From Rhodothermales bacterium (GTDB taxonomy: Bacteria > Bacteroidota > Rhodothermia > Rhodothermales > UBA10348): a stretch of 64,000 nt of DNA. The notes beneath the pieces are model-generated. The model saw nothing but the letters and a program-made list of their open reading frames with translations. It was not told where the DNA came from and did not search any database. Each line of letters opens with the position of its first letter. Position 1 is the first letter of the stretch. This document shows positions 46,145 through 63,500 of the stretch, in pieces. Position numbers and translations under genes: made by a program. The DNA lies in assembly GCA_024711125.1 (NCBI GenBank), contig JANJTM010000077.1:3836-67835 (forward strand), given 5' to 3'.

Positions 46145-47413
46145 ATGAATCCGATTCGTTCCATGGCATCCCACGAGCCCACGACCCGGCGCCGGTCCCT
46201 GGCGGGCATCCTGTTTCCGCTCCTGGCGATCCTCGCGTGGTCGGGCTGCGACACCGGCCCGGCCGAGAGCCTCTACACGCCCGACGACCCGTCCAAGCCC
46301 GATCCGGTGGTCACGGCGGTCGAACCGGCCGGCTCGGCGCTCGCGGGCGTGGACATCATCCGGCTCACCGGGCAGAACTTTTCGGCCGTCGCCGAGGAGA
46401 ACTACGTGTATTTCGGTCCCAAGCGGGGCACGCTGATTTCGGCCACTCCCACGACGATCGAAGTGCGCTCGCCGGCCACCCCGGGCGACGACATCCCGAT
46501 CCGCGTCCAGGTGATCGGCGCCGAAAACTTCTCGGACGCGGTCGACTACCGACTGGAGGCGGCGTACGAGGTGTTCGGAGCCATCGGGAAGGTCGAGGAG
46601 CTGCGTTCGATGACTACCGATGCGGCGGGCAACATGTACGTCTCCATGGTTTCCGGCGGAACCTCGGTCGGCTTCAAGAAGATCGCTCCGGACGGCTCGC
46701 GCAGCGATTTTGCCGCGTCCACGTTCCAGTGGAACGGCCTTGCGGCGGGATCGGACGGCCGGCTGTACGGCGCGCGCAACCTGCGGGCCGTCTTCCGCTT
46801 CGCCGAGGGAGGCGCCCAGGAGACGTGGGTCACCCTGACGCCGACCACCGTCCGAATTTCGGCGCTCGCGTTCGACGCGAACGGTAACCTGTGGGCGGGC
46901 GGTGCCAACACGGAGATCTTCCGGCTCGCGCCCGACAAGACCGTGGCCCGGTTCCCGTTCGACGGAGTCGTCACCGCCATCCGTCCGTTCGCAGGCCACC
47001 TGTACGTCGTGGCGCAGGTCGCCGGGTCGTACGGCGTATGGCGGTTCCCGATGGACGGCGCCGGAAACCTCGGAACGGCGTCGCTCTACTTCGACATCGC
47101 CGCGAACGTGGGCGCCGCTGCGACGAGCGAGGCGCTCGCTTTTGCGGCCGATGGATCCATGTACGTCGGAACCGACCAGGCCGACCCGGTCGTCATCGTG
47201 GCCCCGGGCGGGGCGTCGCATTCGATCCTGTACCCCGGCGTCATGCGGCAGCCGGTCGTGGGGGGCACCCAGGTGCCGCCGTCGCCCGTACTGGACCTGG
47301 CATGGGGCCCGGATCCGTTCCTGTACGCCATCCAGGCACGCCCCGTGGGCACGCTCGCGGGAGATGCCGTCCCCATGATCCGCATCAATACGAGGAAGAG
47401 CGGGTCACGGTAG
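46145..47413 (+). CDS. IPT/TIG-domain lipoprotein with an NHL/SGL-like beta-propeller
   Basis: 422 aa. Signal ending LAILAWSGC. IPT-like PVVTAVEPAGSALAGVDIIRLTGQNF...IEVRSP. Repeated propeller blades (DAAGNMYVS, SDGRLYGA, DANGNLWAG, ADGSMYVG). Confidence 0.75.
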   Translation: MNPIRSMASHEPTTRRRSLAGILFPLLAILAWSGCDTGPAESLYTPDDPSKPDPVVTAVEPAGSALAGVDIIRLTGQNFSAVAEENYVYFGPKRGTLISATPTTIEVRSPATPGDDIPIRVQVIGAENFSDAVDYRLEAAYEVFGAIGKVEELRSMTTDAAGNMYVSMVSGGTSVGFKKIAPDGSRSDFAASTFQWNGLAAGSDGRLYGARNLRAVFRFAEGGAQETWVTLTPTTVRISALAFDANGNLWAGGANTEIFRLAPDKTVARFPFDGVVTAIRPFAGHLYVVAQVAGSYGVWRFPMDGAGNLGTASLYFDIAANVGAAATSEALAFAADGSMYVGTDQADPVVIVAPGGASHSILYPGVMRQPVVGGTQVPPSPVLDLAWGPDPFLYAIQARPVGTLAGDAVPMIRINTRKSGSR

Positions 47414-47475
47414 CATTTCTCGTCGGAATTCCGTCTCTTGACAAACTCCACCACCACAACACACCAAGAACCACC

Positions 47476-48879
47476 ATGCGCAACCTTCTACTGACGCTGC
47501 TCGTCGCGTTCTGCACTGTCTCGGTCGCTTCGGCCCAGACGGCCTGGAACCACGCGGCGACCTGGAATCCCACGGTCACCGTATCGGGTCAGCAGTCCCA
47601 GGGACACGGCATCGCCGTCGATGCCGAGGGCAAGATCTGGTATCAGCCCTACTACGCGTCCGAGACCACGCAGCCGGCCTGGTCGGCCACGCCGGTCAAT
47701 ACCCGGGCGCTCTACATCTTCAATCCGGACGGAAGCCCGGCGTCGTTCTCGCCGCTGCTGTACATCGACTACGTGGCCGGCGGTCGGGACACGCTCGGCG
47801 GCCGCACGATCCTGAACGCCACCGGCGCCAAGGCCTTCGATCCTCACACCGGTCGCGGCCTGCGTGCCGACGAGAACGGCGACATCATCGTGATGCAGTA
47901 TCACCACCTGTACCGGCTCGACCACAAGACCGGCCAGGGCAAGAACATGCTGATCTGGGAGAATGGCCAGTCCGGCGCAGCGCCTGCCGTCGCCACCGGC
48001 AACGGGACCATCTTCGTGGCCCCCGTGGTGCCGGCTACCGGTCGCGCGCTCAAGATGTACGACAAGGACTTCCAGCCGCTCGGCAACGCGCTCGACATGA
48101 CACGCGGGTTCTCCCGCTCGTTCGAGGTCTCGCCGGATGCGAACAAGATCTACTGGTCGGGCTACACCAATCACGGCGTGATCCTCTACGAACGGGCCGA
48201 CGAATTCTCGGCGTTCGACTCGACGGGCATCGTGATCCCGGGCGTGGACACCGAGTCGCTGACCTGGCAGCCCGGCACGGGCTGGCTGTGGGTCTCGTCG
48301 GGCTCGGCCAACGACGGGCCGAACCGCCTGCCGGGCGTGACGACGAACTGGGCGGTCGACACGTGGTACGCGTTCGATCCGGCCGAGCTTGCCGTGAACA
48401 CGGTGCCGGCGGCCAAGGCGATGCTGACGTGGGTGCCGCGGCCCGAGTGCGCTGCCGACCGCACGGCGGCCAACTGCGGTCGTCCCCGCGGGCTCGCCTT
48501 CTCGCCCGATGGGCAGACGGCGTATGCGACCACGTTCGCCGTGAACGGCGAGCCGGCCATCCAGGTCTTCTCGGCCATGCCGGTCGCGATCGAGAAGATC
48601 GACGCCTCGGTGCCCGATCGCTTCGTGCTGATGCCGGCGTACCCGAACCCGTTCAACCCCACGACGAACATCAACTTCATGCTGAACGAGACCGGCCATG
48701 CCCGTCTCGCGGTCTACGACATGACCGGGCGTGAGGTCGCGGTGCTCGCCGACCAGACGATGTCGGCCGGGACCTACCAGTACTCGTTCGACGCCACCGG
48801 GCTCACCTCGGGCGTCTACGTGTACCGTCTCACCTTCGGCGGGCAGGTGGCCAACGGCCGCCTCACGCTCGTCAAGTAA
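47476..48879 (+). CDS. secreted beta-propeller-like protein with a canonical T9SS C-terminal sorting domain
   Basis: Tail of track ORF 46891-48879 from ATG 47476. Signal peptide MRNLLLTLLVAFCTVSVASAQ. C-terminal YPNPFNPTTNINFML...LAVYDMTGREVAVL...SGVYVYRL (Por_Secre_tail pattern). Confidence 0.8.
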   Translation: MRNLLLTLLVAFCTVSVASAQTAWNHAATWNPTVTVSGQQSQGHGIAVDAEGKIWYQPYYASETTQPAWSATPVNTRALYIFNPDGSPASFSPLLYIDYVAGGRDTLGGRTILNATGAKAFDPHTGRGLRADENGDIIVMQYHHLYRLDHKTGQGKNMLIWENGQSGAAPAVATGNGTIFVAPVVPATGRALKMYDKDFQPLGNALDMTRGFSRSFEVSPDANKIYWSGYTNHGVILYERADEFSAFDSTGIVIPGVDTESLTWQPGTGWLWVSSGSANDGPNRLPGVTTNWAVDTWYAFDPAELAVNTVPAAKAMLTWVPRPECAADRTAANCGRPRGLAFSPDGQTAYATTFAVNGEPAIQVFSAMPVAIEKIDASVPDRFVLMPAYPNPFNPTTNINFMLNETGHARLAVYDMTGREVAVLADQTMSAGTYQYSFDATGLTSGVYVYRLTFGGQVANGRLTLVK

Positions 48880-48902
48880 GCCTCGACTCCATCGTGCGGA
48901 GA

Positions 48903-48934
48903 GGGGCTCCCGGCCGGCGCCGGGGGCCCCTTTT
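48903..48934 (+). terminator. strong intrinsic terminator closing the 39761-48879 unit
   Basis: 12-bp stem 48903-48914 / 48919-48930 (GGGGCTCCCGGC / GCCGGGGGCCCC, one G-U pair), a 4-nt loop, then TTTT (48931-48934). Confidence 0.75.
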
Positions 48935-48956
48935 CGTCCGCGGACCCGACGTCGCC

Positions 48957-50798
48957 ATGATGAGGACCAGGAATAGGACCGCCCGGAAACGGGCCATGCA
49001 CGGCCTGTTGGCTTCCATCGCCCGTCTGGCTGTCATTCTCGTGTTCGTTGCCGTCACGAGGCCGGTCTCGGCCCAGATCGGCTCCAACCCGAAGCAGGAA
49101 TTCCGCGCGGCCTGGATCGCTACGGTCGCCAACCTCGACTGGCCGGCGCAGGGGGCCTCGGCCGCCGAGCAGCAGGCCGACCTCGTGCGCCTGCTCGACC
49201 GGCTCAAGGAGGACGGTTTCAACGCGGTGGTCTTCCAGGTGCGCAACGAGGCCGACGCGCTCTACGCGTCGCCCTACGAGCCGTGGTCGGTGTTCCTGAC
49301 GGGTACGCAGGGGCAGGATCCGGGCTACGATCCGCTGGCGTTCGCCATCGAGGAGGCCCACAAGCGCGGCATGGAACTGCACGCCTGGTTCAATCCGTAC
49401 CGCGTATGGGTGTCCGGCCGCAACTACCCGCGCCACCCGTCGAGCGTCTACCTGACGAAGCCCGAGTGGCTGCTGACCGTCAACAACGCCGTCACGATAC
49501 TCAACCCGGGCATCCCGGACGTACGCAACTACGTAATCCAGATCATCCGCGACGTCGTCGAGCGGTACGACGTCGACGGCGTGCATTTTGACGATTACTT
49601 CTACCCGTACCCGCCGAACACGATCACCACACAGGACCAGGCGACGTTCAACCAGTACGGAACGGCGTTCGGTTCGCTGCCGGTCTTCCGCGCGTACAGC
49701 GTCAACATGCTGGTCAAGGGCGTTCGGGACGCGATCGCGGCGGTCAGGCCCGAGGTCAAGTGGGGCATCAGCCCGTTCGGCATCTGGAAGAGCGGAACGC
49801 CGACGGGCATCACCGGCATGTCCGGCGCCACCGAGATCTACGCCGACGCCGTCGTGTGGATGGAGCAGCAGTGGCTCGACTACCTGACGCCGCAGCTCTA
49901 CTGGGCATTCGGCGGAGGCCAGGACTACGGCAAGCTCGCTCCATGGTGGGCCACCCAGGTGAACGGCCGGCACCTGGTCCCCGGCCTTGCGGCCTACCGA
50001 CAGGACGTGTACGGCAATTCCGAGATCCACAACCAGATCCGGCTCAACCGGCGCACGGCCAACACGTTCGGCCAGGTGCTCTTCCGCGCCCGGTCCATCA
50101 CGGGCAATACCGACGGCATCGAGGATTCGCTCCGGACGAACCTCTTCCGCAACCGCGCGCTGACGCCGACGATGCCGTGGAAGGACGTCTCGGCCCCCGG
50201 GCGGCCGACCGATTTCGCGGGGCTCTGGACGTCGGAAGGGGCCTATACGCTGTCGTGGACGCCGGTCGCGGCCGATGCGACGACCGCGCGCTCGCGCTTT
50301 TTCGCGGTCTACCGCGTGCGCTCGGCCGCGGCGCCGGACTGGAACGCCGTGATGGCCGATCCGGCGAACCTGCTCGCGGTTACGGGAGAGACCCGCTTCA
50401 CGGACCGGCCGCCGATTTCGGCGGAACCGTACCGGTACGTGGTGACGGCGGTGTCGCCGAACTCGGTCGAGAGCCTTCCGACCGGCGAGATCGTGCTCTC
50501 CGCGACCTCCACGGAGGCCGAGGAGGTGCCGCTCGCGGTCCGCCTGCTGGACGTGTGGCCCAACCCGTTCACGGGCCAGGTGTCGCTGCGCGTGGAACTG
50601 GACCGCAGGATTCCCGTCGACGTGCGCATCCACGATCTCCTGGGGCGCGTGGTCGCCGTGCTATCGGATGGAGAGGCCCTGGACGCCGGGCGGCACGAAC
50701 TGCGATGGGAGGCCGGCTCGGCACCCGCCGGAGCCTATTTCGTCGTGGTCCGTGCGGGGGACCGGGTCCTTGCACGTCCGGTCGTGCGGGTGCGCTAG
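48957..50798 (+). CDS. glycoside-hydrolase-like family 10 (GHL10/DUF187) protein with a T9SS C-terminal domain
   Basis: Start moved to ATG 48957 (MMRTRN...) because the GTG at 48894 would run through the terminator. Motif EFRAAWIATVANLDWP...GFNAVVFQVR...ELHAWFNPY. C-terminal VWPNPFTGQVSLRVEL...AYFVVVRAG. Confidence 0.8.
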   Translation: MMRTRNRTARKRAMHGLLASIARLAVILVFVAVTRPVSAQIGSNPKQEFRAAWIATVANLDWPAQGASAAEQQADLVRLLDRLKEDGFNAVVFQVRNEADALYASPYEPWSVFLTGTQGQDPGYDPLAFAIEEAHKRGMELHAWFNPYRVWVSGRNYPRHPSSVYLTKPEWLLTVNNAVTILNPGIPDVRNYVIQIIRDVVERYDVDGVHFDDYFYPYPPNTITTQDQATFNQYGTAFGSLPVFRAYSVNMLVKGVRDAIAAVRPEVKWGISPFGIWKSGTPTGITGMSGATEIYADAVVWMEQQWLDYLTPQLYWAFGGGQDYGKLAPWWATQVNGRHLVPGLAAYRQDVYGNSEIHNQIRLNRRTANTFGQVLFRARSITGNTDGIEDSLRTNLFRNRALTPTMPWKDVSAPGRPTDFAGLWTSEGAYTLSWTPVAADATTARSRFFAVYRVRSAAAPDWNAVMADPANLLAVTGETRFTDRPPISAEPYRYVVTAVSPNSVESLPTGEIVLSATSTEAEEVPLAVRLLDVWPNPFTGQVSLRVELDRRIPVDVRIHDLLGRVVAVLSDGEALDAGRHELRWEAGSAPAGAYFVVVRAGDRVLARPVVRVR

Positions 50799-50805: not shown

Positions 50806-52176
50806 TCACCACTCGAGGCGCAACCCGGCGTAGGGCTCGAACCAGCGCTGCACGAGGTAGCGATCCGTGGTCGCGCCCTCGACGGCAACGCGTTCGTACG
50901 TATACCTCGCTTCCGAGTGGATCCATACGCGGGGGAACAGCCGGTACGACGCGCGCAGCGACAGGGCCGACTCGTCGCCCAGCGGCTCGAAGACCGAGAA
51001 GAAACCGGAGAGTCCGCCCCGGTCCTGCGACAACGCCAGCCGCAACCGGGTTGCCCGTACGAAGAGCCGGAGGTGCATCTCGCTCAGGGGATACACCCCG
51101 TAATGTCGTCGGAAGGCGTACCAGAGCTCGACCCGGCCGAAGAAATGCAGCCGCAGCTCCGAGAACACGTCGGTTCCGCCCGTGGCCCGTTCGAGCGGAA
51201 GCCCGACGACCGACCGGTCGTCCGAGATGCCGCTCGAATCGCTCGACACGGTGCGCGCGAGCTGGCTGCGCACCGGGTAGAACGCGCCGAAGTACCCGGG
51301 TTCGAACCGGCGCCCGCCGTAATTCACCGCGAGGCGGAAATGCAGGCGGGCGACGTCGATGAAGTTGTCGGCTTCGAGATCCGCGCCGAACATCAGGCCG
51401 CGACCGTACCGCGTGAAGCGCGCGACCGAGACGAACGGTTCGAGGGTGAACGCGCCGGATCGGGCCGCGGTGAGCCGCACATCGGCCTGCACGGCCCTGA
51501 CCGGCGCGACGTCCGGACGGTCGAAGGTCCCGCGATCGGTCACCCAGGATCCGGCCAGCACCAGGCTCGAAAGGGCCTCGCTCCGGGCTCCGGCCAGCGG
51601 GTGGAGTTCGACGCGTCCTCCCAACGTTCGACCGAGACGAACGTCCTGCGTGAACCCGTAGACCGACCAGGCCCGGCGTCCGAACCAGGCCTCGGCGCCC
51701 ACGAACCGTTCGTTCCACGCGGTCTCGCCGCTGAAATGGTCGACCAGGTGGCCCGGACCCAGGCGCAATCGACGGATCGTACCGATCCGGGCGTACAGCG
51801 TGCGCCGCGGGGACGGATCGAGGCGGGCGAACGACACCAGCCGAAGCAGGTCGTAGGGCTCGTCGAGGTCGGGTCCGTACGATCCGTAGACCCCGGCGCG
51901 CGCCGAGGCCTCGAGTTCCAGGCTCTCGTACGGGCCTTCCACCCGCAGCGCGGCGCGTGCCGCAGACCGCCACTGGGCGCCGATCAGCGAGGGTCCGGCC
52001 TGCAGGTCCAGGTGTCGCTCCCGGTCCCAGCGGGGCAGGCGACGGGCCTCGGCCGGGTCGTCGATCGACCCGAACACGGCCGACTGGGCGAGCACGCCGC
52101 CCGGAAAAGATGCCGTGAAGAGTGCCGCCAGCAGGCACGCCCATACCACGGCCTGTGCCCGTCCTGGAAGCGGCAT
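50806..52176 (-). CDS. outer-membrane beta-barrel-like hypothetical protein
   Basis: Track ORF 50806-53106 trimmed to ATG 52174-52176 (MPLPGRAQAVVWACLLAALFTASFPGGVLAQS); the upstream 310 codons are antisense to the MBL gene. Alternating beta-strand pattern and a C-terminal aromatic residue (GLRLEW). Confidence 0.65.
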   Translation of the reverse strand: MPLPGRAQAVVWACLLAALFTASFPGGVLAQSAVFGSIDDPAEARRLPRWDRERHLDLQAGPSLIGAQWRSAARAALRVEGPYESLELEASARAGVYGSYGPDLDEPYDLLRLVSFARLDPSPRRTLYARIGTIRRLRLGPGHLVDHFSGETAWNERFVGAEAWFGRRAWSVYGFTQDVRLGRTLGGRVELHPLAGARSEALSSLVLAGSWVTDRGTFDRPDVAPVRAVQADVRLTAARSGAFTLEPFVSVARFTRYGRGLMFGADLEADNFIDVARLHFRLAVNYGGRRFEPGYFGAFYPVRSQLARTVSSDSSGISDDRSVVGLPLERATGGTDVFSELRLHFFGRVELWYAFRRHYGVYPLSEMHLRLFVRATRLRLALSQDRGGLSGFFSVFEPLGDESALSLRASYRLFPRVWIHSEARYTYERVAVEGATTDRYLVQRWFEPYAGLRLEW

Positions 52177-52332: not shown

Positions 52333-53181
52333 ATGAAGATCGACGCCTACACGATCCTTCCGCTCGAAACAGGGCGGTTCGCCCTCGACGGAGGCGCCAT
52401 GTTCGGCATCGTGCCGCGGCCGCTCTGGAGCCGGCGCATCGCTCCGGACGAGCGCGGCCGCATCCCCCTCGCGACCCGTTGCATGCTGGTCGAGGGTAAT
52501 GGCCGCCTCTTCGTCGTGGACACCGGAATCGGCGACAAGGTGGACGACCGCTTCCGCGACCTGTACGGCATGCACGACCAGCGGCCGGTCGAGCGGGCCG
52601 TCGAGGAGGCAGGGTACGCGCCCCACGAGGTGACCGACGTCATTCTCACGCACCTGCATTTCGATCACTGCGGAGGCACGACGCGGCGGGTCGGCGACCG
52701 CCTCGAGCCCGTATTTCCGCGGGCCACCCACTGGGTGCAGGAGGCGCACTGGACCTGGGCCGGCATTCCGAACGCGCGCGAACGCGCGTCCTTCCTTCCC
52801 GAGAACTACGCCGTACTCGAGAGCGAGGGCCTCCTGCGGCTCGTGGACGGCGACGTCGCGATCGCGCCGGGCATCCGGGTGCAGCGTGTCGACGGGCATA
52901 CGGAGGCGCAGCAGATCGTGCACGTCGAGGGACGGGACGCGCACGCGGTCTACGTGGCCGACCTGCTTCCGACGGCGGCCCATCTCGCTCCCGCGTGGGG
53001 CATGGCCTACGACCTGCGTCCGCTCGTCACGATCGAGGAGAAAGGCGCGCTCGTTCGGCAGGCCATCGACGGGGGGTGGCGCATCCTGCTCGAACATGAC
53101 GCGCACGTCGAGTCCATCCGCGTCGCCGATTCGGACCGGGGTCCCGTGGCGGTGGACGAGGCCGGCTGGCTCGACGCCTGA
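52333..53181 (+). CDS. MBL-fold metallo-hydrolase
   Basis: 282 aa. Metal-binding motif ILTHLHFDHCGG. Confidence 0.88.
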   Translation: MKIDAYTILPLETGRFALDGGAMFGIVPRPLWSRRIAPDERGRIPLATRCMLVEGNGRLFVVDTGIGDKVDDRFRDLYGMHDQRPVERAVEEAGYAPHEVTDVILTHLHFDHCGGTTRRVGDRLEPVFPRATHWVQEAHWTWAGIPNARERASFLPENYAVLESEGLLRLVDGDVAIAPGIRVQRVDGHTEAQQIVHVEGRDAHAVYVADLLPTAAHLAPAWGMAYDLRPLVTIEEKGALVRQAIDGGWRILLEHDAHVESIRVADSDRGPVAVDEAGWLDA

Positions 53182-53234: not shown

Positions 53235-54881
53235 ATGTTCTCGGAGCTTCGCCGCTTCCTCCTACGACCGTCCGGCCGTCTCGCGCGGGCCGTGCTGGTC
53301 CCTGTCACGCTGATTTACGGCCTGTTGGCCGTCTACGGGGGTCTCCTGGTGATCCAGGCCGGCAACCGGCTCGATTCGGGGCGCCTGGCTTCGGTCGTGG
53401 AGACGCTCGGACGCACGTGGAATCCCAGCCAGGATCCGTCGACGCTCACGGGCCTGGCGGCGGAAGAAGAGTGGGAGCGCGTCTGGATCGTATCGGCAAC
53501 GGGACGCATCGTGTCCTCCTCCGAGATCGGTGAGACGGGAGCGATGCTCGACGGATCGTTCTGGGACGGGATGGACGCCGACGGCCAGGCCACGCTGCGA
53601 CGGGTGGACCGTGCGGGCGGAACCTGGGTGCAGGCCGCTTACCACGACCTGCCCAGGGGACTCTGGGCGATGGTCGTGGTGCCGGACCGGTCGTCCGCTT
53701 TCCCGTCCTGGGCTCGACTCGGCGGATACCTGGTCTTCGTCGGCGCCGTGTGGCTCCTTCTCGCGCTCGCAGTCGCGACCGCCGTTCGGCGCCGCCTCGA
53801 TCGTGGTCTCGACACCGCCGAAGACGTCGCGCGCAGGGTCCTCGACGGCGAGCCCCTGCCCGCGCCGGTGCTCGACCGCGACCGGGCGAACGCGGGCGAG
53901 GAGGGTCCGGCAGGGCTCATCGTCGAACTGTCGAAGCGGCTGCAGGAGCAGGCCGTCCGGTACCGCGAGGCCGAGTCGCGTTTCGCGTCGCTGCTGGACC
54001 TGGTGCCCGGGGCGGTCTGGATGGCTACGCCGGAGGGCAGGGTACTGGCGGCCGGGGCGGGATTCCGGGCGATGGTGACCGACCCGACGGTTCCGCTGGT
54101 CGGCAACCAGGTCTCGTCCATCCCCGTTCGGCTGCCCATGTCGCGCATCCACGCGGCCGCCCGGCGTGCGCGGGAGAGCGGGGTCACCGTGAACGGGTTG
54201 CCCGTCGAGGGCGGCGACGAGCCGGTGCGGGTGTCCATCGCGCCCGTGCTCTTCCGCGAGGGGGAAGCCTATCTGGCGCACGTGGTGAGCGAATATGACG
54301 GGTTCGTTCGGTCGGAGGATCCGGGCCTGGCGTCTCTCCTGGTGGATGCGTCGGCCGACGCGGTCGTGGCCTTCGACGCCGAGGCGCGCACGGTGATCTG
54401 GAACCGCGCCGCCGAGCGTATCTCGGGCCGGCTCCGGGCCGAGGTCCCCGACCTGAAGCGGGTTGCGGCGGCGCTGTTCGCGGGCCGGGAGACGGCGTTC
54501 ATGGAGTGGCTCGATGCGCAGCCGGGCACGGAGCCGCTCGACGTCGAGCACCTCGCATCGGATGGGACGCGACCGACGCTGCGCTGGACCGCCGTGGAGC
54601 TTGCCGGAAAGACCGGCGTGTACGGCGGCGCCCTGGTGGGCCGCCTCCTGGAACCTCGACGCGTGACGCGGAAGAAGGAGCCCGCCGAGGGGATCGAAAA
54701 CGGCAGGTTCCGCACTCCGAAAACCAAACCGGCCCCGTCGCAGACCCGGAAATCGGCCGCGAAGAAGCCGGCCGCATCGGCACCCGCGCCGACCAAGGGG
54801 GCGAGACCCAAGAGCGCGCCCCCCGGAACGCCTGCGAAGAAGTCCGGCCGGCCGAAGGCCGCGCAGGCCGGCGGCGGTTGA
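53235..54881 (+). CDS. membrane sensor protein: 2 TM flanking a periplasmic domain, two PAS-like domains and a Lys/Pro/Ala-rich tail; no kinase core
   Basis: 548 aa. TM1 AVLVPVTLIYGLLAVYGGLLVI and TM2 LGGYLVFVGAVWLLLALAVATAV. PAS-like LVPGAVWMATPEGRVLAAGAGF and LVDASADAVVAFDAEARTVIWNRAAERISG. The last 75 aa are basic and low-complexity. No H-box or N/G1/G2 boxes seen. Confidence 0.7.
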   Translation: MFSELRRFLLRPSGRLARAVLVPVTLIYGLLAVYGGLLVIQAGNRLDSGRLASVVETLGRTWNPSQDPSTLTGLAAEEEWERVWIVSATGRIVSSSEIGETGAMLDGSFWDGMDADGQATLRRVDRAGGTWVQAAYHDLPRGLWAMVVVPDRSSAFPSWARLGGYLVFVGAVWLLLALAVATAVRRRLDRGLDTAEDVARRVLDGEPLPAPVLDRDRANAGEEGPAGLIVELSKRLQEQAVRYREAESRFASLLDLVPGAVWMATPEGRVLAAGAGFRAMVTDPTVPLVGNQVSSIPVRLPMSRIHAAARRARESGVTVNGLPVEGGDEPVRVSIAPVLFREGEAYLAHVVSEYDGFVRSEDPGLASLLVDASADAVVAFDAEARTVIWNRAAERISGRLRAEVPDLKRVAAALFAGRETAFMEWLDAQPGTEPLDVEHLASDGTRPTLRWTAVELAGKTGVYGGALVGRLLEPRRVTRKKEPAEGIENGRFRTPKTKPAPSQTRKSAAKKPAASAPAPTKGARPKSAPPGTPAKKSGRPKAAQAGGG

Positions 54882-54932
54882 CCGTCGGCCCGGGGACGCG
54901 TACCATGCGGGCCCTACGGAAACGCTCTACCG

Positions 54933-55199
54933 ATGGACCCGGCTACTTCCGACCCGGAATCGATCTTCCTGGCCGAACTGCGCGGCCGGTTGGGCCGGCT
55001 GTACCACGACCTGAACAATCCGCTCGCCATCGCGTCGGGTAACCTGCAGCTCATCGAGGAACTCCTGGCGATGGGAGAGACCGACGGCGTTCGCGACGCC
55101 GTGGCCGATGCCCGGACGGCGCTGGCCCGGTTCGGTACGCTGCTCGAGGAGTTCCAGGCGCTGCGCGAGGCGATCGACCGGCACCGAACCAAGGGCTGA
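54933..55199 (+). CDS. stand-alone DHp (HisKA-like) helical-hairpin protein with an H-box
   Basis: 88 aa. H-box LYHDLNNPLAIASGNLQLIEELL, then a second helix DAVADARTALARFGTLLEEFQALREAI. No ATPase domain. Lies 51 nt after the sensor gene and 61 nt before porU. Confidence 0.6.
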   Translation: MDPATSDPESIFLAELRGRLGRLYHDLNNPLAIASGNLQLIEELLAMGETDGVRDAVADARTALARFGTLLEEFQALREAIDRHRTKG

Positions 55200-55260
55200 G
55201 CCCGGCAGGGCAGGTCTCCGTCGCCGCGGAACCCGTCCCGTTTCGCCCGGTTAGGCCGGC

Positions 55261-58200
55261 GTGACCCCTGTTGCCCGCATGCTGGACGGCCGCCGATTCA
55301 TCGCCTGGACCCTGAGCTTCCTCGCCTGGTGCGGGGTATCGACGGCCGGTGCCCAGGTGGTCCGGACCGAAACCGAGCGGGTCGACGGCGGCACGCGGAT
55401 CCTCTTCACGATCGACTGGCGCCTCGATCTCGCGAGCGCGGTCGATTCGGCCCGCGTTTCCGCTCTTCGGCCGGCGGACCTGGAGGCGATCGGCGGCGGC
55501 CTGGTCCACGCCGAAACCGTGCTGGAACTGTCGTCCTCGACGACACCCGGCGTCTCGCTGCTGCGCGCCGACGAGGAATTCGTGGCCCTTCCGCTCGGGG
55601 AGGGCGTCGGCATGGCCGACCTCGGCACGTCCCTGCCGTCGGTGCAGGGCGTCGGCATCGCGGCCCGGCGCCGCGTCGGAAGCGTGGTGGCACCCGTCTT
55701 CCGGTACGACGAGGCGACCGGCAGGCTCGCACGGCGACGCGCCGTCGAAGTGTTCGTGGCCGACGCCGCGTCGAAGGGACTGCTGGCGCCGTCTCTCGAC
55801 AACCCGCATCTCGCCGTGTCGCGGAGCGAGCTGGCAGACGGAACCATCCTGCGCATTCCGATTCCGGCCGAAGGGGTGTACCGTGTCGACCGGGCGTTCC
55901 TCACGGCGGCGGGGCTCAACCCGGATACGATCGACCCCGACCGCATCCGTGTCCTCTCGAACGGGGGAAGGCCGCTTCCGGCCCTGAACCGCGCCGAGCG
56001 GTTCGCCGATCTCGTCGAGAACGCGGCCTTCTCGCGCGGAGGAGGAGACGGCCGGTTCGACACGGGAGACGCGCTCTACTTCTGGGCAGCCGGGCCGTCC
56101 GGCTGGACGTGGACGGCGACCGGCTGGGAGCACGTCGTACACCCGTTTTCGCGCGAGAACGCGGTGTTCCTGAAGATCGCCGACGCGCCGGGAGTACGCG
56201 TGGCGTCGCCGGCGGCACCCGGCGCGCCGATCGAGCCGGTGCTGTCGAACGTCGTCGGGCGCTGGTTCGTGGACTTCGAGGAGCGGGTCTGGAGCAAGGA
56301 GCACGGCTCCGGCCAGGACTGGATGTCGAACACCATCCGCTCCGGTTCCCGCCGCGACCTCGTGCAGAACGTCACGCCGCCGGGATTCACGGGCGGAACC
56401 GTGCAGTGGTCGTCCCGGATCGCCATCGCGTCGAACCCCCGGGCGACCGTCGCATTCGAGTCGGGCTCGCAGGTGCTGGCCCAGCAGCCCGCGCCGACGG
56501 TCACGAGCCGCTCGGCCGAGGCTCCCTCGGCGTCGCCGGCCATCACGAATTTCCAGCAGACGGTGGGCGCCGGAGCGTCGCTCTCGCTCACGATGCGCCT
56601 GCTGGAGCAGATCAACGAGCCCGAGGCCGCCGCCGACTGGGTTCGCGCCTTCTACGACCAGCGGCTGGTCGCGACCGCGGGCATGCTCCGTTTCGCGACG
56701 CCGTCGGCTTCGGTCGGCACGATGGATTTCCGCGTGACGGGGTTCACGGCGGCGCCGCAGGCGTGGGACGTGACACGCCCCGACGCGATCACGGCCCTCG
56801 GCGTGGTCGCCGACGGCGACGGGTGGCGCGTGCGCGTCTCCCGGATCGCGGGACAGCCGCCGCGGGAGATCGTCGTATTCTCCGAGACCGGGGTCACGGC
56901 CGCGCCGACGCAGGGCGTCAGCCGGGTTCCGAACCAGGACATCCACGGGACGGCGGGTCACCCGGACCTCGTGATCGTCGCACCGGCCGAATTCCTCGAG
57001 CCGGCCGGCGAACTGGCCGAGCGCCGCCGGGCCGAAGGGCTCTCGGTGCTCCTGGCGACCACCACCCAGGTCTACAACGAGTTTTCGGGGGGCGTGCCCG
57101 ACATGCGCGCCGTGCGCGACCTGGTCAAGTTCTTCTACGACGGGGCGCCCGACGAGGCGTCGCTTCCGCGCTACCTGCTGCTGTTCGGCGACGGGCACTA
57201 CGACTTCCGCGGGCTCGCGACCGGCGAGGGCGACCTCCGGAACTGGGTATTTCCGTACGAAACCGAGGAGTCGCTCCTCACCGACGCCGCCTTCACGAGC
57301 GACGACTATTTCGGTCTGCTCGACGACGAGGAAGGCGAGTGGATCTACACGACGTTCGGCGCCATATCCACCGAGCGCATGGACATCGGGGTCGGTCGCC
57401 TTCCCGTGCAGACCGTGTCGGAGGCGGCCATGGTGGTGGACAAGATCCGGCGCTACGAGACCAGCGAGGAGTTCGGGTCGTGGAGGTCGCTGTACACGGC
57501 GTTGGCCGACGACGGACCGACCGGTCTGGCCGGCCAGCAGAACGACGCCGACCTGCACCTGCAGAACGTCGACCAGGTGGTCGAGCTGGTGCGCCAGGGG
57601 CTGTACCCGGATATCAACATCCGCAAGATCTATGCGGAATCGTACGACCGGGTCTTCCTGAACGGGTTCAAGATCCCCGACGCGCGGCGCGACGTGCTCG
57701 CGGCGCTCAACTCGGGCACCCTGCTCTTCAACTACAGCGGGCACGGCGGCCCCGAGGGGCTCGCGCAGGAGGAGATCTTCACCAAGCAGGACGCGTGGGC
57801 GCTCACGAACCACGACCGGCTCGCCGTTTTCGTGACCGCCACGTGTTCGTTCGGGTGGTGGGACCTCAACGAGGACCAGAGCGGCGCCGAGGCGCTGCTG
57901 CTGAATCCGAACGGCGGGGCGGTCGCGCTGATGACCACCGTGCGGCTGGTCTACACGTCCGGTTCGATCAACTCGCTGAACGCGGGGCTGAACCGCGCGC
58001 TGAACATCGAACTGTTCACGCGGGACGCCGACGGTCTCCCGCGTCGCCTCGGGGACGTGATGCGCCTTACGAAGAACACGACGGTAGGCCTGCAGGGCAA
58101 CTCCCGAAAGTTCAACCTGCTGGGGGACCCGTCGATGCGCATCGGGCTTCCGCCCGGACGGGTGCGGGTGGAATCGTTGAACGGCGTCGCGCTCGAGGAC

Positions 58201-59259
58201 GGTGCCGGACGCATGCGCGCGCTCGATCTCGTCACGATCGACGGCCGCGTGGAAACGCCGGCCGGACAACCCGACCCCACGTTCGACGGCACCGTCAGCG
58301 TGACGGTGTACGACGCCGAACGTCGGGTACCCCTCGAGCGGCAGCTTCACATGCCCACGCCGTACTACACCGTGCGGGAGGACCTGGTCTGGCGGGGTGA
58401 CGTCCGGGCGACGGACGGCCGGTTCCGTGCCCGGTTCGTCGTTCCGAAGGACATTTCGTACTCGAACGCGGCGGGGCGCATTTCTGCCTACGCCGCGACC
58501 GGCGACCGGCACGCGCTCGGTCACAACGAGGAGTTCCTCGTGGGCGGCACGTCGAGCACTCCGCCGAACGACCTCACCGGACCCGAGGTCCGGCTGTTCG
58601 TCGGGGATACGACGTTCGTCGCGGGCGAGACCGTACCGGCGTCGTCCGAGGTGATCGTGCGGCTGTTCGACGAGAGCGGGATCAACACGGTGGGCGCGGG
58701 CGTGGGTCACGAGATGCTGCTCGTCGTCGACGCAGACGAGGCGGGCGCCGTCGACATCTCTAGCGCCTTTCGCAGCGCGCCGGATTCGTACCAGCGCGGA
58801 GAGGTCCGATGGCCGCTGCCCGACCTCGAACCCGGTCCGCATCGCCTGTCGGTGCGCGCGTGGGACGTGCTGAACAACAGCGCGACGGCCGAAATCGACT
58901 TTGTCGTGGCCGACGATGGGGTACTCGAGCTGAGCAATGTGTATAACTATCCCAACCCCATGCATCGCGAGACGCGGTTCGTGTTCGACCACAACCAGCC
59001 TCCGGGCACCCCGGCGACGGTCGACATACGGATCTTCACGCTCTCGGGGCGCCCGGTGAAACGGATTCCGACCGAAGAAGCCCTTCCGGGCGGAATTCTC
59101 ACATCGGGACCGGTACAGGTTTTGTGGAACGGACTGGACGATGATGAAGATCGTCTGGCTACCGGGATCTACCTGTACCGTGTGCGCGTGGAAGCGGAAC
59201 GTACGGATGGGTCCCGGCAACGGGCAGAGACGATCGAACGACTGGCAGTCATACGATAA
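55261..59259 (+). CDS. porU: type IX secretion system sortase PorU (C25 gingipain-family peptidase)
   Basis: 1332 aa with a signal peptide (alternative ATG at 55279). C25 catalytic region FNYSGHGGPEGL (His) and FVTATCSFGWWD (Cys). Own CTD YNYPNPMHRETRFVF...GIYLYRVRV. Directly followed by porV. Confidence 0.88.
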   Translation: MTPVARMLDGRRFIAWTLSFLAWCGVSTAGAQVVRTETERVDGGTRILFTIDWRLDLASAVDSARVSALRPADLEAIGGGLVHAETVLELSSSTTPGVSLLRADEEFVALPLGEGVGMADLGTSLPSVQGVGIAARRRVGSVVAPVFRYDEATGRLARRRAVEVFVADAASKGLLAPSLDNPHLAVSRSELADGTILRIPIPAEGVYRVDRAFLTAAGLNPDTIDPDRIRVLSNGGRPLPALNRAERFADLVENAAFSRGGGDGRFDTGDALYFWAAGPSGWTWTATGWEHVVHPFSRENAVFLKIADAPGVRVASPAAPGAPIEPVLSNVVGRWFVDFEERVWSKEHGSGQDWMSNTIRSGSRRDLVQNVTPPGFTGGTVQWSSRIAIASNPRATVAFESGSQVLAQQPAPTVTSRSAEAPSASPAITNFQQTVGAGASLSLTMRLLEQINEPEAAADWVRAFYDQRLVATAGMLRFATPSASVGTMDFRVTGFTAAPQAWDVTRPDAITALGVVADGDGWRVRVSRIAGQPPREIVVFSETGVTAAPTQGVSRVPNQDIHGTAGHPDLVIVAPAEFLEPAGELAERRRAEGLSVLLATTTQVYNEFSGGVPDMRAVRDLVKFFYDGAPDEASLPRYLLLFGDGHYDFRGLATGEGDLRNWVFPYETEESLLTDAAFTSDDYFGLLDDEEGEWIYTTFGAISTERMDIGVGRLPVQTVSEAAMVVDKIRRYETSEEFGSWRSLYTALADDGPTGLAGQQNDADLHLQNVDQVVELVRQGLYPDINIRKIYAESYDRVFLNGFKIPDARRDVLAALNSGTLLFNYSGHGGPEGLAQEEIFTKQDAWALTNHDRLAVFVTATCSFGWWDLNEDQSGAEALLLNPNGGAVALMTTVRLVYTSGSINSLNAGLNRALNIELFTRDADGLPRRLGDVMRLTKNTTVGLQGNSRKFNLLGDPSMRIGLPPGRVRVESLNGVALEDGAGRMRALDLVTIDGRVETPAGQPDPTFDGTVSVTVYDAERRVPLERQLHMPTPYYTVREDLVWRGDVRATDGRFRARFVVPKDISYSNAAGRISAYAATGDRHALGHNEEFLVGGTSSTPPNDLTGPEVRLFVGDTTFVAGETVPASSEVIVRLFDESGINTVGAGVGHEMLLVVDADEAGAVDISSAFRSAPDSYQRGEVRWPLPDLEPGPHRLSVRAWDVLNNSATAEIDFVVADDGVLELSNVYNYPNPMHRETRFVFDHNQPPGTPATVDIRIFTLSGRPVKRIPTEEALPGGILTSGPVQVLWNGLDDDEDRLATGIYLYRVRVEAERTDGSRQRAETIERLAVIR

Positions 59260-59346
59260 CGGCGAGCTTATCGAGCACGGATACGACCCACGCGGCGCCC
59301 AGGGCGCCGACGCCAAGGCTGTACCAACCAGGTTGATTCGACCGAC

Positions 59347-60522
59347 ATGACGACCCATCGCCCCTTCGGGGCATCCGCTCGCCGCGCTTCGGCGCTGGCC
59401 TTCGTGGCCGTTGCCTTCTTCGCCACGGCCTTCTCCGCCCGAGCCCAGGTGGGCTCCTCCGCGGTGGTCTTCCTCAAGATCGAGCCCGACTCGCGCACGG
59501 CGGGCATGGGCAACGCGGGCGTGGCGCTCGCCGACAATGCCGCCGCGCTGTTCTGGAACCCGGCCGGCCTGGCGTTCCAGAAGGGCACCGAGGCCTCGAT
59601 CACGCACGCGAACTGGCTTCCGCAGCTTTCGAGCGACCTCTTCTACGAGTACCTGACGGCCAAGCACCACGTGCCGGGCTGGGGTACGTTCGGCGGGCAC
59701 CTGACCTATCTCTTCCTCGGGGAGCACGAGGGGCGGGACGCCCAGAACAACCCCACGGGCACGTTCAAGTCGTATGACCTCGCCGTCGGGCTGTCCTACG
59801 GCGCCAAGGTGGGCCGGAACTTCGGCCTCGGCACGAGCCTGCGCTTCATCTACTCGAACCTCGCCCCGGGCCAGGTGGTCGGCGCGCAGGAGACCAAGGC
59901 GGGCGTGTCCACGGCCTTCGACGTGGCCGGCCTGTACCGCGTGCCCGAGTTCAACCTGGGTTCGATCGGAACCAACGTCTCGTTCGGGTTCAACCTGGCC
60001 AACATGGGCCCGAAGATCCAGTACAGCGATTCGCAACAGGCCGACCCGATTCCGACCAACCTGCGTGTCGGCTATGCGGTCCAGCTGGACTTCGACGACT
60101 ACAACTCGCTGACCCTCGTCACGGACTTCAACAAGGACCTGATCCACGAGACCCAGGTGGACTCGCTGACCCGCAAGACCGACGAGTGGTACCAGGCCAT
60201 CTTTTCGTCCTGGAAGCCGGTCCGCGTACAGACCAACGCCCTGAACGAGGAAGAAGCCCAGTACGAGACGCTCTCGGTCTTCGATCAGTTCACGATCGGC
60301 GCAGGGTTCGAGTACTGGTACGGTTCGCCGCGGCTCTTCGCCGTGCGCAGCGGGTATTTCTACGAGCACCCGTACAACGGTAACCGGAAGTTCCTCACGC
60401 TCGGGGCCGGCGTGCGGTACAACATCATCGGCGTGGACTTCTCGTACATCTACGCCCTGCAGGAAGAGTCGCCGCTCGCCAATACGATGCGGTTCTCGCT
60501 GCTGTTGAATTTCGACCGGTAG
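59347..60522 (+). CDS. porV: type IX secretion system outer-membrane shuttle protein PorV (LptO)
   Basis: 391 aa. Signal peptide, FLKIEPDSRTAGMGNAGVALADNAAALFWNPAGLAF, and a beta-barrel pattern to the C-terminal LLLNFDR. Canonical porU-porV order. Confidence 0.88.
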   Translation: MTTHRPFGASARRASALAFVAVAFFATAFSARAQVGSSAVVFLKIEPDSRTAGMGNAGVALADNAAALFWNPAGLAFQKGTEASITHANWLPQLSSDLFYEYLTAKHHVPGWGTFGGHLTYLFLGEHEGRDAQNNPTGTFKSYDLAVGLSYGAKVGRNFGLGTSLRFIYSNLAPGQVVGAQETKAGVSTAFDVAGLYRVPEFNLGSIGTNVSFGFNLANMGPKIQYSDSQQADPIPTNLRVGYAVQLDFDDYNSLTLVTDFNKDLIHETQVDSLTRKTDEWYQAIFSSWKPVRVQTNALNEEEAQYETLSVFDQFTIGAGFEYWYGSPRLFAVRSGYFYEHPYNGNRKFLTLGAGVRYNIIGVDFSYIYALQEESPLANTMRFSLLLNFDR

Positions 60523-60533
60523 GCCATTCCGCC

Positions 60534-63500
60534 GTGCCTGTTTCCACGCTCCGTCGGCTCGGCCTCGCCCTGACGACCGCGTGCGTCCTTTCGTCGCTCC
60601 TTGTCGCGTCACCGGTATCGGCGCGGCAGGACGCACCTGGCGCGGGCGTTCGGAAGATCCTCGCGGCAGACCTGCCGGCCATGCGGCAGGCCGCGTTTGC
60701 CGACAGGGGCGGCCCGGCGACTCCCTCGGGTTCCGGCACGGCGGCACCCGCTCTCGGGCGGTTCGACGTCGTGGCGCTTCGTGTCGAGTTCCAGCCCGAC
60801 ACGACGCGCTTCACGACGGGTGACGGGACGTTTGCCGGATCGCTCTTCGGAGAGGGCCTCGAACCCAAGGTCGATCCGCTTCCGCACGACGCGGAGTATT
60901 TCTCGGCGCACCTGCAGTTCCTCGAGCACTACGTGTCGACGGTCTCGGACGGTCGGGCCGAGGTGCGTACGTGGCTGCTACCCGAGGTCGTGCGCGTGTC
61001 GGGCCGCATGGGTGATTATGCACCCACCGGGTTCGACGCCGACTCGGACGCCGAACTGTCGAAGCTCGCGGCGCTGGCGCGCGAGGCGTGGTCGCTGGCC
61101 GACGGCTCGTCGCTGGCCGGCCGCGGACTCGTGCCGGGGCGCACCGCGTTCGTGCTCTTCCACGCGGGTGTCGGCCGGGACCTGGAACTGACCGGGACGA
61201 GCCTCGACAAGACGCCCGAGGACCTGCCGTCGCTCTATCTCTCGGGCGAGGCGCTCGACCGCCTCGCGCCCGGAACCGCGCCGGTGGTCGGAGGGGTGCC
61301 GGTCGCGAACACGCTCGTGATCCCGCGCACGGAGACCCGCCGCGGATTCAACTTCATCACCGACGAGAACTTCCTGGCCGAGTTCTCGATCAACGGGATG
61401 CTCGCGGCGAGCTTCCTGAACTTCCTGGGCGTGCCCGACCTCTTCGACACGGAGACCGGGCAGAGCGCCGTCGGCCCGTTCGACGTGATGGACGGGCTGG
61501 GCATCTTCGCGATGCAGGGACTGTTTCCGCCCGAACCGTCGGCCTGGACACGCGCCTGGCTCGGGTGGGCCGACGTGCGCACGGCGACGCTTGCCGAAGC
61601 CGGTACCTCGTACTCAATTCCGCACGCGGGCTCGGCCGACCCGGCGAGCGTACTCAAGGTGCCCATTTCTGCGGCAGAGTATTTCCTGGTCGAGAACCGC
61701 TACCGATCGACCTCGGGGGTCACGCTCCGGGTGCTCAAGGACGGCGTGGAACGCGAGGTGTCCATTCCGAACGATTCGGAGACGTTCAATCCGTACACCA
61801 TCGAAGGCTTCGACGGCGGCGTGGTCGTCGCAGCCGACCCGTACGATTTCGCGTTGCCGGGAGGCGTCGACGAGAACGACACCCCGCTGGTGGGTGGCGC
61901 ACTCGTCTGGCACGTGGACGAGCGGCGGCTGGCCGAGACCCTCGCCGACAACCGCGTGAACGCCGACAAGGAACGCCGGGCGATCGATCTCGAGGAGGCC
62001 GACGGCGCGCAGGACATCGGCTACCCGTCCGGCGGGTTCTTCGGGCCGTCGTACGACGCGGGCTCGCCGTTCGATTTCTGGTACGAGGGCAACCCGGTGA
62101 GCGTGCGTACGGCGTCGGGGCAGGAATTGCGGCTGTACGAGAACCGGTTCGGGGCGGATACCTTTCCGGCGTCCCGTGCGAATGACGGGGGGGCCTCGTT
62201 CGTGGAGATTCGGGATTTTTCCGGTCCGGGAGAAGCGGTCACCGTCACGGTGACCGCCGTGGAGCAAGGGGAACTGAAGTCGCGGGGCCTCCTGTTCGTC
62301 TTGCCGAAAGAGGATCTGCGAGCGCGCCTCGTGGGCGGAAGCATCCAGCTGTGGGATCGTGGATTCAGTCTGTTCGTGACCCCGCTCGCGGGCTGTTCGA
62401 CGCTCATTTATGGCTTCGCCAACGGGTGGGGGGCCGATAGTTGTCTGCTGGCCGCCGAGCCGGCAACCGACGGTCAGGGTCGCATGTTTGCCTTGGAGTT
62501 CGGCACCCTCCGCGTTCACCGGCGCGACAACAGTCAGACCCTCGTCAACCTGCCTCGGCCGGAAGTGCAGCGCGCCACGACGCCGCTGGTGCTTGAAGGG
62601 GATGGAAAGACGGTCGTCGTGGGAGTGTTCGGTCTTCAGGGTCCGAAACTGCTGCGTTGGAATGGAACTTCGGTTTCGCTGTCCAGCGAAGCCGAGCCCG
62701 TGGCCTCCTTGGCCGTCGACCAGGCCGGGCGCCTGATCGTCATCGGGAATACGACTGCCCGCGTCGATGGCACGGAGACCGTGTGGTCGTATCCCGAAAT
62801 CGATGCGTTTTCGCTTCCCAGGCCGCAGTTCGGTCACGACACGGCCGGATACTTCGGCGCCGTCGCGTCGCCTGGAGCGCTGCGGTTGCTGCAGCCCGAC
62901 GGCTCCGTAACCGTCTTGGGCACCGACCTACCCCAATCCCAGGGCGCGGCCGCAGCCTCCGGGTCCGGGGGCCTCACTTTCGATGGATTGAGCCCGGCGA
63001 CAGCCGTCGGAGATCTCGACGGCGACGGACTGCTTGAGGCCGTGGTGGCCGACAGGAACCGATTGTGGGCATTTCACCGTACCGGTGCGATCGTGAGCGG
63101 CTTCCCGATACGCCTCAATGCAGGCATCGGCTCCGGGGGGCCGCTGGTGACGCGTCGTACGGATTCCGGGCGACCGGTCATCCTGCTCGGCCAATCGGAC
63201 GGCACGATGGATGCGTTCGACTTGGGAGAAGGCACAAGACGCATGGAAGGGTTTCCCCTCAGTGTCGGTCAGGGCGATGTCATGACGCCTATCCTGGTAG
63301 GCGATCGTCTGGCGGCCGTCGATGCTGCCGGTGCCCTCCGGGAATGGCGATGGGGCGCTCCCGTCGAATCGGCCATGGGACTCGTCTCGCCGGGCAACTC
63401 GTCCTTCGTCGTCGTGGATTCCGTGCAGCCCCCGGAAGGCGTTTCGTTTCTCCTCGACCCCTCCGAGACCTACAACTGGCCCAACCCCGTCCAGGACGGC

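Follow-up and report, generated by a model that had tools for sequence, protein, structure and literature searches.

What can the phospho-acceptor half of a histidine kinase do when it is encoded on its own, beside the genes of a protein secretion system? The question is raised by a 64-kb stretch of DNA from a Rhodothermales bacterium (the window, with ~35 predicted genes and a GC content of 68%), in which a gene for a membrane-bound PAS sensor is followed by an open reading frame (ORF) for an 88-residue protein and then by two type IX secretion system (T9SS) genes, porU and porV. The original prediction, made from the sequence alone, took the small protein for a dimerization and histidine phosphotransfer (DHp) hairpin and left a choice between a decayed, split kinase and a two-piece signaling module positioned to regulate porU-porV. 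We find that the ORF is a real, selectively maintained, stand-alone gene for a DHp protein that has no catalytic and ATP-binding (CA) domain. As judged by profile comparison, it belongs to a distinct family of such CA-less DHp proteins with at least 141 clusters at 50% identity. Its product would, with a probability that we put at roughly 0.4, form a dimer that docks a conserved response regulator encoded elsewhere, most likely acting on it as a phosphatase, in a circuit tied to the T9SS genes.

The 88-residue protein matches HisKA (PF00512) with an E-value of 1.5e-5 and 25.4 bits, slightly short of the gathering score of 26.9, which two relatives exceed (32.4 bits at locus L048 and 27.3 bits at L015). 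Its H-box is YHDLNNPLAIASGN; the H-box stretch LYHDLNNPLAIASGNLQLI occupies residues 23–41, lies on helix 1, and reads Y-H25-D-L-N-N29-P-L...G36-N37-x-Q39, in agreement with the pattern H-[DE]-x-x-[TN]-P. The AlphaFold2 (AF2) monomer model is a helical hairpin, with helices at residues 8–47 and 50–87 and a predicted local distance difference test score (pLDDT) of 90. A Foldseek search of this hairpin against the PDB was non-specific, returning generic helical hairpins mixed with DHp domains, all at E > 0.4. By sequence, the closest proteins of solved structure are the DHp domains of ZraS (9jfj), HK853 (4jas), and ThkA (3a0r). The protein is acidic (pI 4.9) and ends 63 residues past the histidine, and the GC content of its codon positions (0.73/0.45/0.85) is typical of coding sequence. 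The hairpin and H-box of the original prediction are thereby borne out, as is its statement that no HATPase_c domain occurs before porU: neither Pfam nor NCBIfam returned an HATPase_c match in the sensor or the 88-residue protein, and a six-frame motif scan of positions 53235–55260 found no co-located N, G1, and G2 boxes. With 61 nucleotides (nt) between the DHp stop codon and porU, there is no physical room for a catalytic domain. Pfam gave no Hpt match at E ≤ 1 for the protein, whose model has two helices only, and a weak match to SPOB_a (E = 0.053). Its sequence places the protein with the HisKA DHp domains of NtrB, ZraS, and HK853, and because it is without a CA domain it is neither a histidine kinase in general nor a PorY-type kinase in particular.

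Could the gene nevertheless be the remnant of a broken kinase, a PAS-DHp-CA protein cut by a nonsense mutation or frameshift, with its CA domain deleted, or else an artifact of assembly? One feature of the window favors such a history, as the sensor and DHp ORFs share a reading frame with a single TGA between them, and the same is true of locus L011. In L001/2, L004, L012, and L022, however, the two ORFs lie in different frames, and in each of these loci and in L046 either the frame differs or additional stops intervene. The shared frame in the window is probably chance. The same arrangement of sensor and DHp gene, with the small protein unchanged, was found on 13 same-species contigs from different sequencing runs. 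Beyond the species, small-protein clusters at 65–78% identity keep lengths of 88–93 residues, and stand-alone orthologs of 88–96 residues occur in independent lineages at 40–78% identity, in line with the conservation that the original prediction had asked for. The gene order metallo-β-lactamase (MBL)-fold hydrolase, sensor (522–569 residues), small ORF (90–96 residues), porU, porV is kept in orthologous loci, although the sensor has diverged to about 50% identity in L001/L002 and to 35–38% in L004, L011 (a Bacteroidota metagenome-assembled genome, or MAG), and L012 (a Rhodothermales MAG), where the small protein is 40–47% identical. Pairwise dN/dS for the small ORF is 0.06–0.6, and L024, L029, L033, and L048 carry stand-alone DHp genes with no sensor at all.

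Nor did an intact ancestor appear. The original prediction had named an uninterrupted PAS-DHp-CA kinase in relatives as the observation that would count against it; none is present at the orthologous loci, and none was returned by a single-sequence search or a tail-trimmed profile search with the sensor, both of which are word-indexed and of limited sensitivity and found only the same four sensor clusters. On the orthologous loci, the comparison of frames, and dN/dS values below 1, we rejected the pseudogene or frameshift explanation, which we regard as very improbable; the decayed or split kinase and the sequencing error of the original prediction fall with it, given that the same split recurs across the 13 contigs and in relatives at 35–50% sensor identity. 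A conserved read-through of the TGA that would fuse sensor to DHp was also rejected, the shared frame being confined to the window and L011.

To delimit the family, a profile built from five close homologs was run with HMMER against 1.84 billion representative proteins, giving 152 matches at E ≤ 1e-3, of which 148 were analyzed. HisKA was matched at E ≤ 0.01 by 144 of the 148 (best 4.1e-12), HATPase_c by only 3, and SPOB_a, weakly, by 18 at E ≤ 0.01. CA-less members number 141/148, and their C terminus lies a median of 68 residues past the histidine. They divide into 66 stand-alone proteins of ~80–120 residues and 75 with an N-terminal domain of ~100–160 residues, at least 24 of which score as Response_reg. 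The nearest relatives are themselves kinase-less, and HMMER bit scores do not favor short targets, which together argue for a distinct lineage rather than scattered decay. The family is apparently undescribed. Multi-transmembrane proteins from Gemmatimonadota MAGs whose C terminus is a CA-less HisKA hairpin (L013, 7308–8234; L015, 7224–8267) were considered as members and rejected, as their profile scores are about 1e-11 and they have no MBL, PorU, or PorV context; we treat them as a separate, related architecture. In L015 this gene follows a 1057-residue gene that resembles a Tricorn/PD40-S41 protease by eye only.

The pattern of conservation within the family may be informative about chemistry. 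Among aligned CA-less members, the histidine and the asparagine four residues after it (H+4) are each present in 144/144 and the H-box proline in 141/144; further along helix 1, the glycine at H+11 and the asparagine at H+12 are each kept in 144/145 and the glutamine at H+14 in 131/145, and helix 2 carries a D-I-x-x-A patch. The position directly after the histidine (H+1) is looser, being acidic in 117 of 144 (81%), alanine in 13, and asparagine in 9, whereas the sequences behind the query profile all have aspartate there. These two positions have been assigned separate roles: the acidic residue at H+1 serves kinase activity (autophosphorylation) only, and threonine or asparagine at H+4 serves phosphatase activity only (Willett & Kirby 2012, PMC3510030). 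The H+4 asparagine of the 88-residue protein matches this phosphatase determinant in CrdS and HK853. An invariant histidine and H+4 asparagine, a relaxed H+1, and a near-invariant surface below the histidine would fit a DHp dimer that has given up autophosphorylation and docks one conserved receiver domain, on whose phospho-aspartate it acts. In ordinary kinases, the surface below the histidine carries partner specificity.

A decoy would be a different use of the same hairpin. The mini-DHp could form heterodimers with the DHp domain of some complete kinase, such as one like PorY, or block the docking site of a regulator without catalysis, in either case damping the signal in a dominant-negative manner. 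The protein consists of the dimerization hairpin only, its H-box is like that of the complete kinases of the NtrB/ZraS type, and three complete kinases are among the profile matches, all of which would suit an anti-kinase. A decoy has no need, however, for a histidine and an H+4 asparagine that are invariant in 144 sequences, and profile scores in the loci scan separate the family (E ≤ 1e-25 for all members but the Gemmatimonadota transmembrane-DHp proteins) from ordinary kinases with a similar H-box (1e-6 to 1e-12). We consider the decoy improbable.

Harder to set aside is phosphotransfer, in which His25 would be phosphorylated by a receiver or by a separate CA domain acting in trans, as in a split kinase, and would hand the phosphoryl group on to a regulator whose output is the T9SS. 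Relays from Spo0F to Spo0B and from the receiver of CckA to ChpT are the models for such a role. Both of these phosphotransferases keep a C-terminal CA-like α/β domain, which is missing here. The invariant histidine, the HisKA sequence and hairpin fold, and the weak SPOB_a matches are as a relay would have them, and fusions of receiver to DHp exist in the family. When the N-terminal domains were aligned with CheY and Spo0F, the acceptor aspartate was kept in about 11/61 fused receivers and the conserved lysine in 5. The minority that keeps the aspartate would suit a relay, but loss of the acceptor aspartate and the lysine in the majority suggests that most are pseudo-receivers, serving as inputs and not as relay stations. 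Two further points count against a relay: no CA-only or kinase gene is linked at any locus read, and the residue tied specifically to phosphatase activity is the invariant one while the kinase determinant is relaxed. On balance the relay or split kinase is doubtful, yet it is the closest rival to a phosphatase because strict conservation of the histidine fits it at least as well.

The address of the gene is as regular as its H-box. Flanks were taken from independent lineages and their ORFs scored with the window proteins and the family profile. In 12/12 lineages with readable downstream sequence, the window clade included, porU or porV lies within two genes of the DHp gene, and there is no counter-example. 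Upstream, an MBL homolog precedes the DHp gene in L001–12, L022–30, L033, L046, L047, L049, and L050, with L048 the exception; where a locus has a sensor gene, it is the most frequent immediate 5' neighbor of that gene, and elsewhere that of the DHp gene. All family members in the loci scan other than the Gemmatimonadota proteins have MBL and/or PorU/PorV neighbors, and the ordinary kinases with a similar H-box have none. A scan of a genome collection with narrow patterns returned only two orthologous MAGs and ordinary kinases, and a metagenome scan gave at least 16 loci, with 2 family members among the matches listed. What stays constant is the pairing of the DHp gene with porU/porV, in most cases together with the MBL gene, whereas the PAS sensor, the receiver-like domain, and a tetratricopeptide repeat (TPR) gene are, by sequence comparison, interchangeable accessories. 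The TPR gene encodes a ~335-residue protein and separates porU from the DHp gene in lineages of the receiver-DHp form and in one stand-alone lineage (L022, 6864–7871; L029, 2363–3373; L046, 8042–9049); it is absent from the window. Also absent from the window is a ~210-residue protein consisting of a LON substrate-binding (LON N-terminal, LON-N) domain only, encoded 5' of the MBL gene in L004 (8481–9110), L029 (134–760), L046 (3282–3920), and L049 (1088–1762). Our literature search turned up no publication connecting porU/porV, or T9SS genes beside it, to a DHp protein of the CA-less kind.

Such linkage might have nothing to do with regulation. The hairpin could be a partner of the MBL-fold hydrolase or serve as a coiled-coil adaptor, and its place before porU/porV could reflect gene order inherited within one bacterial lineage. 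The MBL gene is as constant a neighbor as porU/porV, no regulator is linked, the loci are all of high GC with a Rhodothermales and a Bacteroidota MAG as the labeled ones, and the Foldseek matches of the hairpin do not single out a signaling fold. Against this, the order survives the gain and loss of the MBL, sensor, and TPR genes and even of porU, as in the DHp-porV arrangement of L048 and the MBL-DHp-porV arrangement of L030 and L033, and the invariant residues are the catalytic H-box residues of HisKA. We therefore hold a non-regulatory linkage to be unlikely, and return to the docking DHp dimer as the preferred reading, in which the DHp protein would regulate porU-porV.

What, then, does the sensor contribute? 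Hydropathy predicts two transmembrane (TM) segments around a loop of ~119 residues (the original prediction had ~130), and their Arg-rich cytoplasmic flanks agree with a TM/periplasmic/TM topology. Pfam gives weak matches to both predicted PAS modules, with PAS_4 at residues 254–348 (E = 1e-4; 23.0 bits, slightly below the 23.1 cutoff) and PAS at 368–404 (E = 1.5e-5; 25.4 bits, over the 22.6 cutoff). The AF2 model, built from three sequences, has a pLDDT of 54 and was too poor for a fold search; its secondary structure, used alone, follows the order TM, α/β, TM, long helix, PAS, PAS, and disordered tail. The architecture that the original prediction described is thus recovered, basic tail included. 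The 77-residue tail is rich in Ala, Pro, Lys, and Arg, with a pI of ~12, and resembles histone H1. It was considered as a conserved functional element and rejected, as a K/P/A-rich tail is limited to L001/2 and the window clade; all that L004, L011, and L012 keep is a short cluster of Arg residues, and L022 lacks even this. Sensor orthologs of 522–581 residues occupy the same position in L001/2, L004, L011, L012, L022, and L046. Comparison of the L022 sensor with that of the window gives 23% identity over the PAS-PAS region (E = 2e-8), and both have the TM/periplasmic/TM topology. About half of the lineages (L024, L027, L029, L030, L033, L048, L049, and L050) have no sensor homolog, which is why we regard the sensor, on this distribution, as an accessory that is dispensable in evolution. 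The two-piece module of the original prediction accordingly stands in one part, the DHp gene being linked to porU/porV in all readable lineages, and not in the other, as the sensor is so often absent and its tail is lineage-specific. The broader proposal of a functional CA-less DHp signaling protein placed at porU-porV is supported and extends to the whole family.

We predict that two hairpins will associate into a four-helix bundle displaying His25, Asn29, and a conserved docking surface made up of AIxSGNxQL on helix 1 and D-I-x-x-A on helix 2. This surface would bind a conserved response regulator through its receiver domain; the regulator would be encoded elsewhere, and a PorX-like one is the obvious candidate, a guess taken from the control of the T9SS by PorXY in Porphyromonas gingivalis (PMC4800418). 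The DHp protein would not autophosphorylate; it would act on the phospho-aspartate of the regulator, most likely as a dedicated phosphatase with the HisKA type of H-x-x-x-N chemistry, perhaps by reverse transfer of the phosphoryl group onto His25. It would thus determine how far a regulator of T9SS expression or activity is phosphorylated. In the window organism, the probably co-transcribed TM/periplasmic/TM/PAS/PAS protein could serve as an optional input that binds or sequesters the DHp dimer at the membrane. Binding or sequestration is the form of coupling we favor because no continuous signaling helix joins the two: a stop codon follows the disordered tail of the sensor, and the DHp protein has an ORF of its own. 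Other lineages might use the fused, mostly degenerate receiver domain as input, and some have neither. The conserved, CA-less gene, the family, its synteny, and its residue pattern are observed; we infer the dimerization, the identity of the partner, the choice between phosphatase and relay chemistry, the way in which the sensor is coupled, and any influence on the T9SS. A more specific version, in which a kinase-less "half" two-component protein sets the phosphorylation of a PorX-like regulator by phosphatase or relay and integrates envelope or cytoplasmic signals through a detachable PAS sensor, possibly also through a product or substrate of the MBL hydrolase, is less likely than not.

An isolated DHp domain can do what is proposed: that of EnvZ (domain A) can dephosphorylate its regulator and can be phosphorylated in trans by EnvZ domain B. 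Several HisKA kinases, moreover, retain phosphatase activity without their histidine. This last fact is one of several that weigh against a regulator-directed phosphatase, for if such activity is possible without the histidine, the 100% conservation of this residue is no better explained by a pure phosphatase than by a phospho-relay. The residue counts come from sequences picked with a profile that holds the same columns and so carry an ascertainment bias. No response regulator or kinase gene is present among the ~35 genes of the 64-kb window, and with the partner unlinked there, the connection to the T9SS is one of gene order. The syntenic loci, moreover, are all of high GC (58–72%) with two organism labels, a Rhodothermales MAG and a Bacteroidota MAG, so that the sampled diversity may sit in one phylum-level lineage and shared ancestry may inflate the gene-order signal.

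Comparison with known systems places the protein among relatives that each share part of its features. With the NtrB, ZraS, and HK853 kinases it has in common the H-box H-[DE]-x-x-N-P-L...G-x-x-Q-L-L on helix 1 of a two-helix hairpin, but it stands alone, HATPase_c is missing from the protein, its locus, and the 141 CA-less family members, and the near-invariant asparagine at H+12 is specific to the family. Spo0B and ChpT are alike in being built on a DHp domain and CA-inactive, and in trading phosphoryl groups with receivers, a role that the 88-residue protein could share; unlike theirs, its hairpin has no C-terminal α/β domain, and its H-box is canonical HisKA and not Spo0B-like. It is not the four-helix monomer of an HPt domain. 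EnvZ domain A provides a precedent for a DHp domain that is active apart from its CA domain, although the EnvZ fragment was engineered. Rv0600c/Rv0601c/TcrA of Mycobacterium tuberculosis reportedly form a split three-protein system in which HK1 trans-phosphorylates HK2. The existence of a three-protein system with two sensor-kinase genes in that organism (PMC3544749) lends some weight to a relay here, but there the CA-bearing partner and the regulator are encoded next door, and here neither is linked.

The PorX/PorY two-component system controls the T9SS in P. gingivalis (PMC4800418). It resembles the present case in being of two-component type and associated with the T9SS, and PorX and PorY are likewise "orphans" encoded apart; PorY, however, is a complete kinase, and its gene is not beside porU/porV. 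A link between PorX and the CA-less DHp family is a guess by analogy. A match in definition is the archaeal class of non-enzymatic, kinase-like "HisKA, no HATPase" proteins (Galperin et al. 2018, PMC5847659), which P2CS lists under "possible incomplete histidine kinases" and which have been suggested to be phosphatases or phospho-acceptors. The 88-residue protein has the conserved histidine and the missing HATPase domain by which that class is defined. The archaeal proteins, though, have PAS or GAF domains fused in one polypeptide, whereas here the DHp domain is a separate mini-protein or is fused to a pseudo-receiver, and the present family is bacterial with a fixed porU/porV association.

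The features of the window and the gene orders at related loci are collected in Table 1. The MBL, sensor, DHp, porU, and porV genes lie on one strand with intergenic gaps of 51–87 nt, and no terminator-like site was found between the MBL gene and porV. Assignments of the flanking genes are firm for porU (NCBIfam T9SS_sortase, 6.6e-281, 934.6 bits against a cutoff of 420; Pfam Peptidase_C25, 1.7e-92) and porV (NCBIfam T9SS_OM_PorV, 4.9e-87, 292.5 bits against a cutoff of 250; Pfam PorV, 3.9e-36); for the MBL-fold hydrolase, the NCBIfam YtnP-like match (1.3e-61, 208 bits) is under its cutoff of 425.

Table 1. Coordinates of the cluster in the window, with gene orders read at loci of other lineages
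Feature	Position (nt)	Strand	Remarks
MBL-fold hydrolase, 282 aa, YtnP/acyl-homoserine lactone (AHL)-lactonase-like	52333–53181	+	Pfam Lactamase_B 1.4e-16
Membrane PAS protein without output domain, 548 aa	53235–54881	+	
Sensor TM1, aa 19–41 (predicted)	53289–53357	+	
Sensor periplasmic α/β domain, aa 42–160 (predicted)	53358–53714	+	
Sensor TM2, aa 161–185 (predicted)	53715–53789	+	
Sensor helical linker, aa 186–253 (predicted)		+	
Sensor PAS1, aa 254–350	53994–54284	+	
Sensor PAS2, aa 362–471	54318–54647	+	
Sensor basic disordered tail, aa 472–548	54648–54878	+	
Intergenic spacer, sensor to DHp	54879–54932	+	Sensor TGA stop plus 17 sense codons; no terminator-like site
CA-less HisKA-type DHp mini-protein, 88 aa	54933–55199	+	
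His25 codon CAC	55005–55007	+	Putative phospho-acceptor or catalytic histidine
Asn29 (H+4) codon	55017–55019	+	
porU, T9SS sortase, Peptidase_C25	55261–59259	+	61 nt 3' of DHp gene
porV, T9SS outer-membrane shuttle/channel protein	59347–60522	+	
Locus L022			MBL / PAS sensor (581 aa) / receiver-DHp (215 aa) / TPR / porU
Locus L046			LON-N / MBL / PAS sensor / receiver-DHp / TPR / porU / porV
Locus L024			MBL / DHp (94 aa) / porU / porV
Loci L027, L050			MBL / receiver-DHp / porU
Loci L030, L033			MBL / DHp / porV
Locus L048			M17 peptidase / DHp (89 aa) / porV; no MBL gene
Loci L029, L049			LON-N / MBL / DHp, then contig ends

Other genes of the window form the surroundings of this cluster. 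Just upstream (46891–50798) lie two genes whose products, a 662-residue protein and a 634-residue protein like GHL10 glycoside hydrolases (48894–50798), carry a C-terminal Por_Secre_tail sorting domain and are probable T9SS cargo. A divergently transcribed 456-residue gene without a Pfam match (50806–52176, minus strand) is found 5' of the MBL gene, in the place that the LON-N gene has in several lineages. After porV comes a gene of ~1020–1070 residues (60534–63734) that matches no Pfam family above cutoff, with weak similarity to FG-GAP_3 (18.7 bits, E = 0.0026). It is kept in the window, L001/2, L005/6, L011, and L012 and may thus also belong to the conserved cluster; in several loci a Tricorn_N-like gene comes after it, which in the window is two genes past porV. 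An ExbB-ExbD-ExbD cluster (23192–25376) and a SusC-like TonB-dependent receptor (CarboxypepD_reg and Plug) followed by a 712-residue gene without a family match (39380–45057) are ordinary nutrient-uptake context of the Bacteroidota type. Long spurious antisense ORFs, such as one of 1898 residues on the minus strand opposite porU/porV (55051–60747), result from the 68% GC, and ORF length by itself is no evidence for a gene in the window.

Overall, the CA-less DHp mini-proteins beside porU/porV fit, by sequence, the loosely defined "HisKA, no HATPase" class. HisKA proteins of this kinase-less sort tend to be written off as "incomplete histidine kinases", and to our knowledge function has been demonstrated for none. 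One member of the present family is labeled "signal transduction histidine kinase" by its source, an annotation that can be corrected, as the protein cannot be a kinase. What sets the family apart is its clean delimitation, its fixed address beside porU/porV, and a signature that splits the phosphatase determinant, which is invariant, from the kinase determinant, which is relaxed. Together these make two questions testable, namely the role of free-standing DHp domains and the regulation of the T9SS beyond Porphyromonas and Flavobacterium. The position of the DHp gene next to porU/porV suggests an unstudied mode of T9SS regulation, and, if the proposed function is correct, the family would be a case of a natural free-standing DHp domain that has evolved into an auxiliary phosphatase class.

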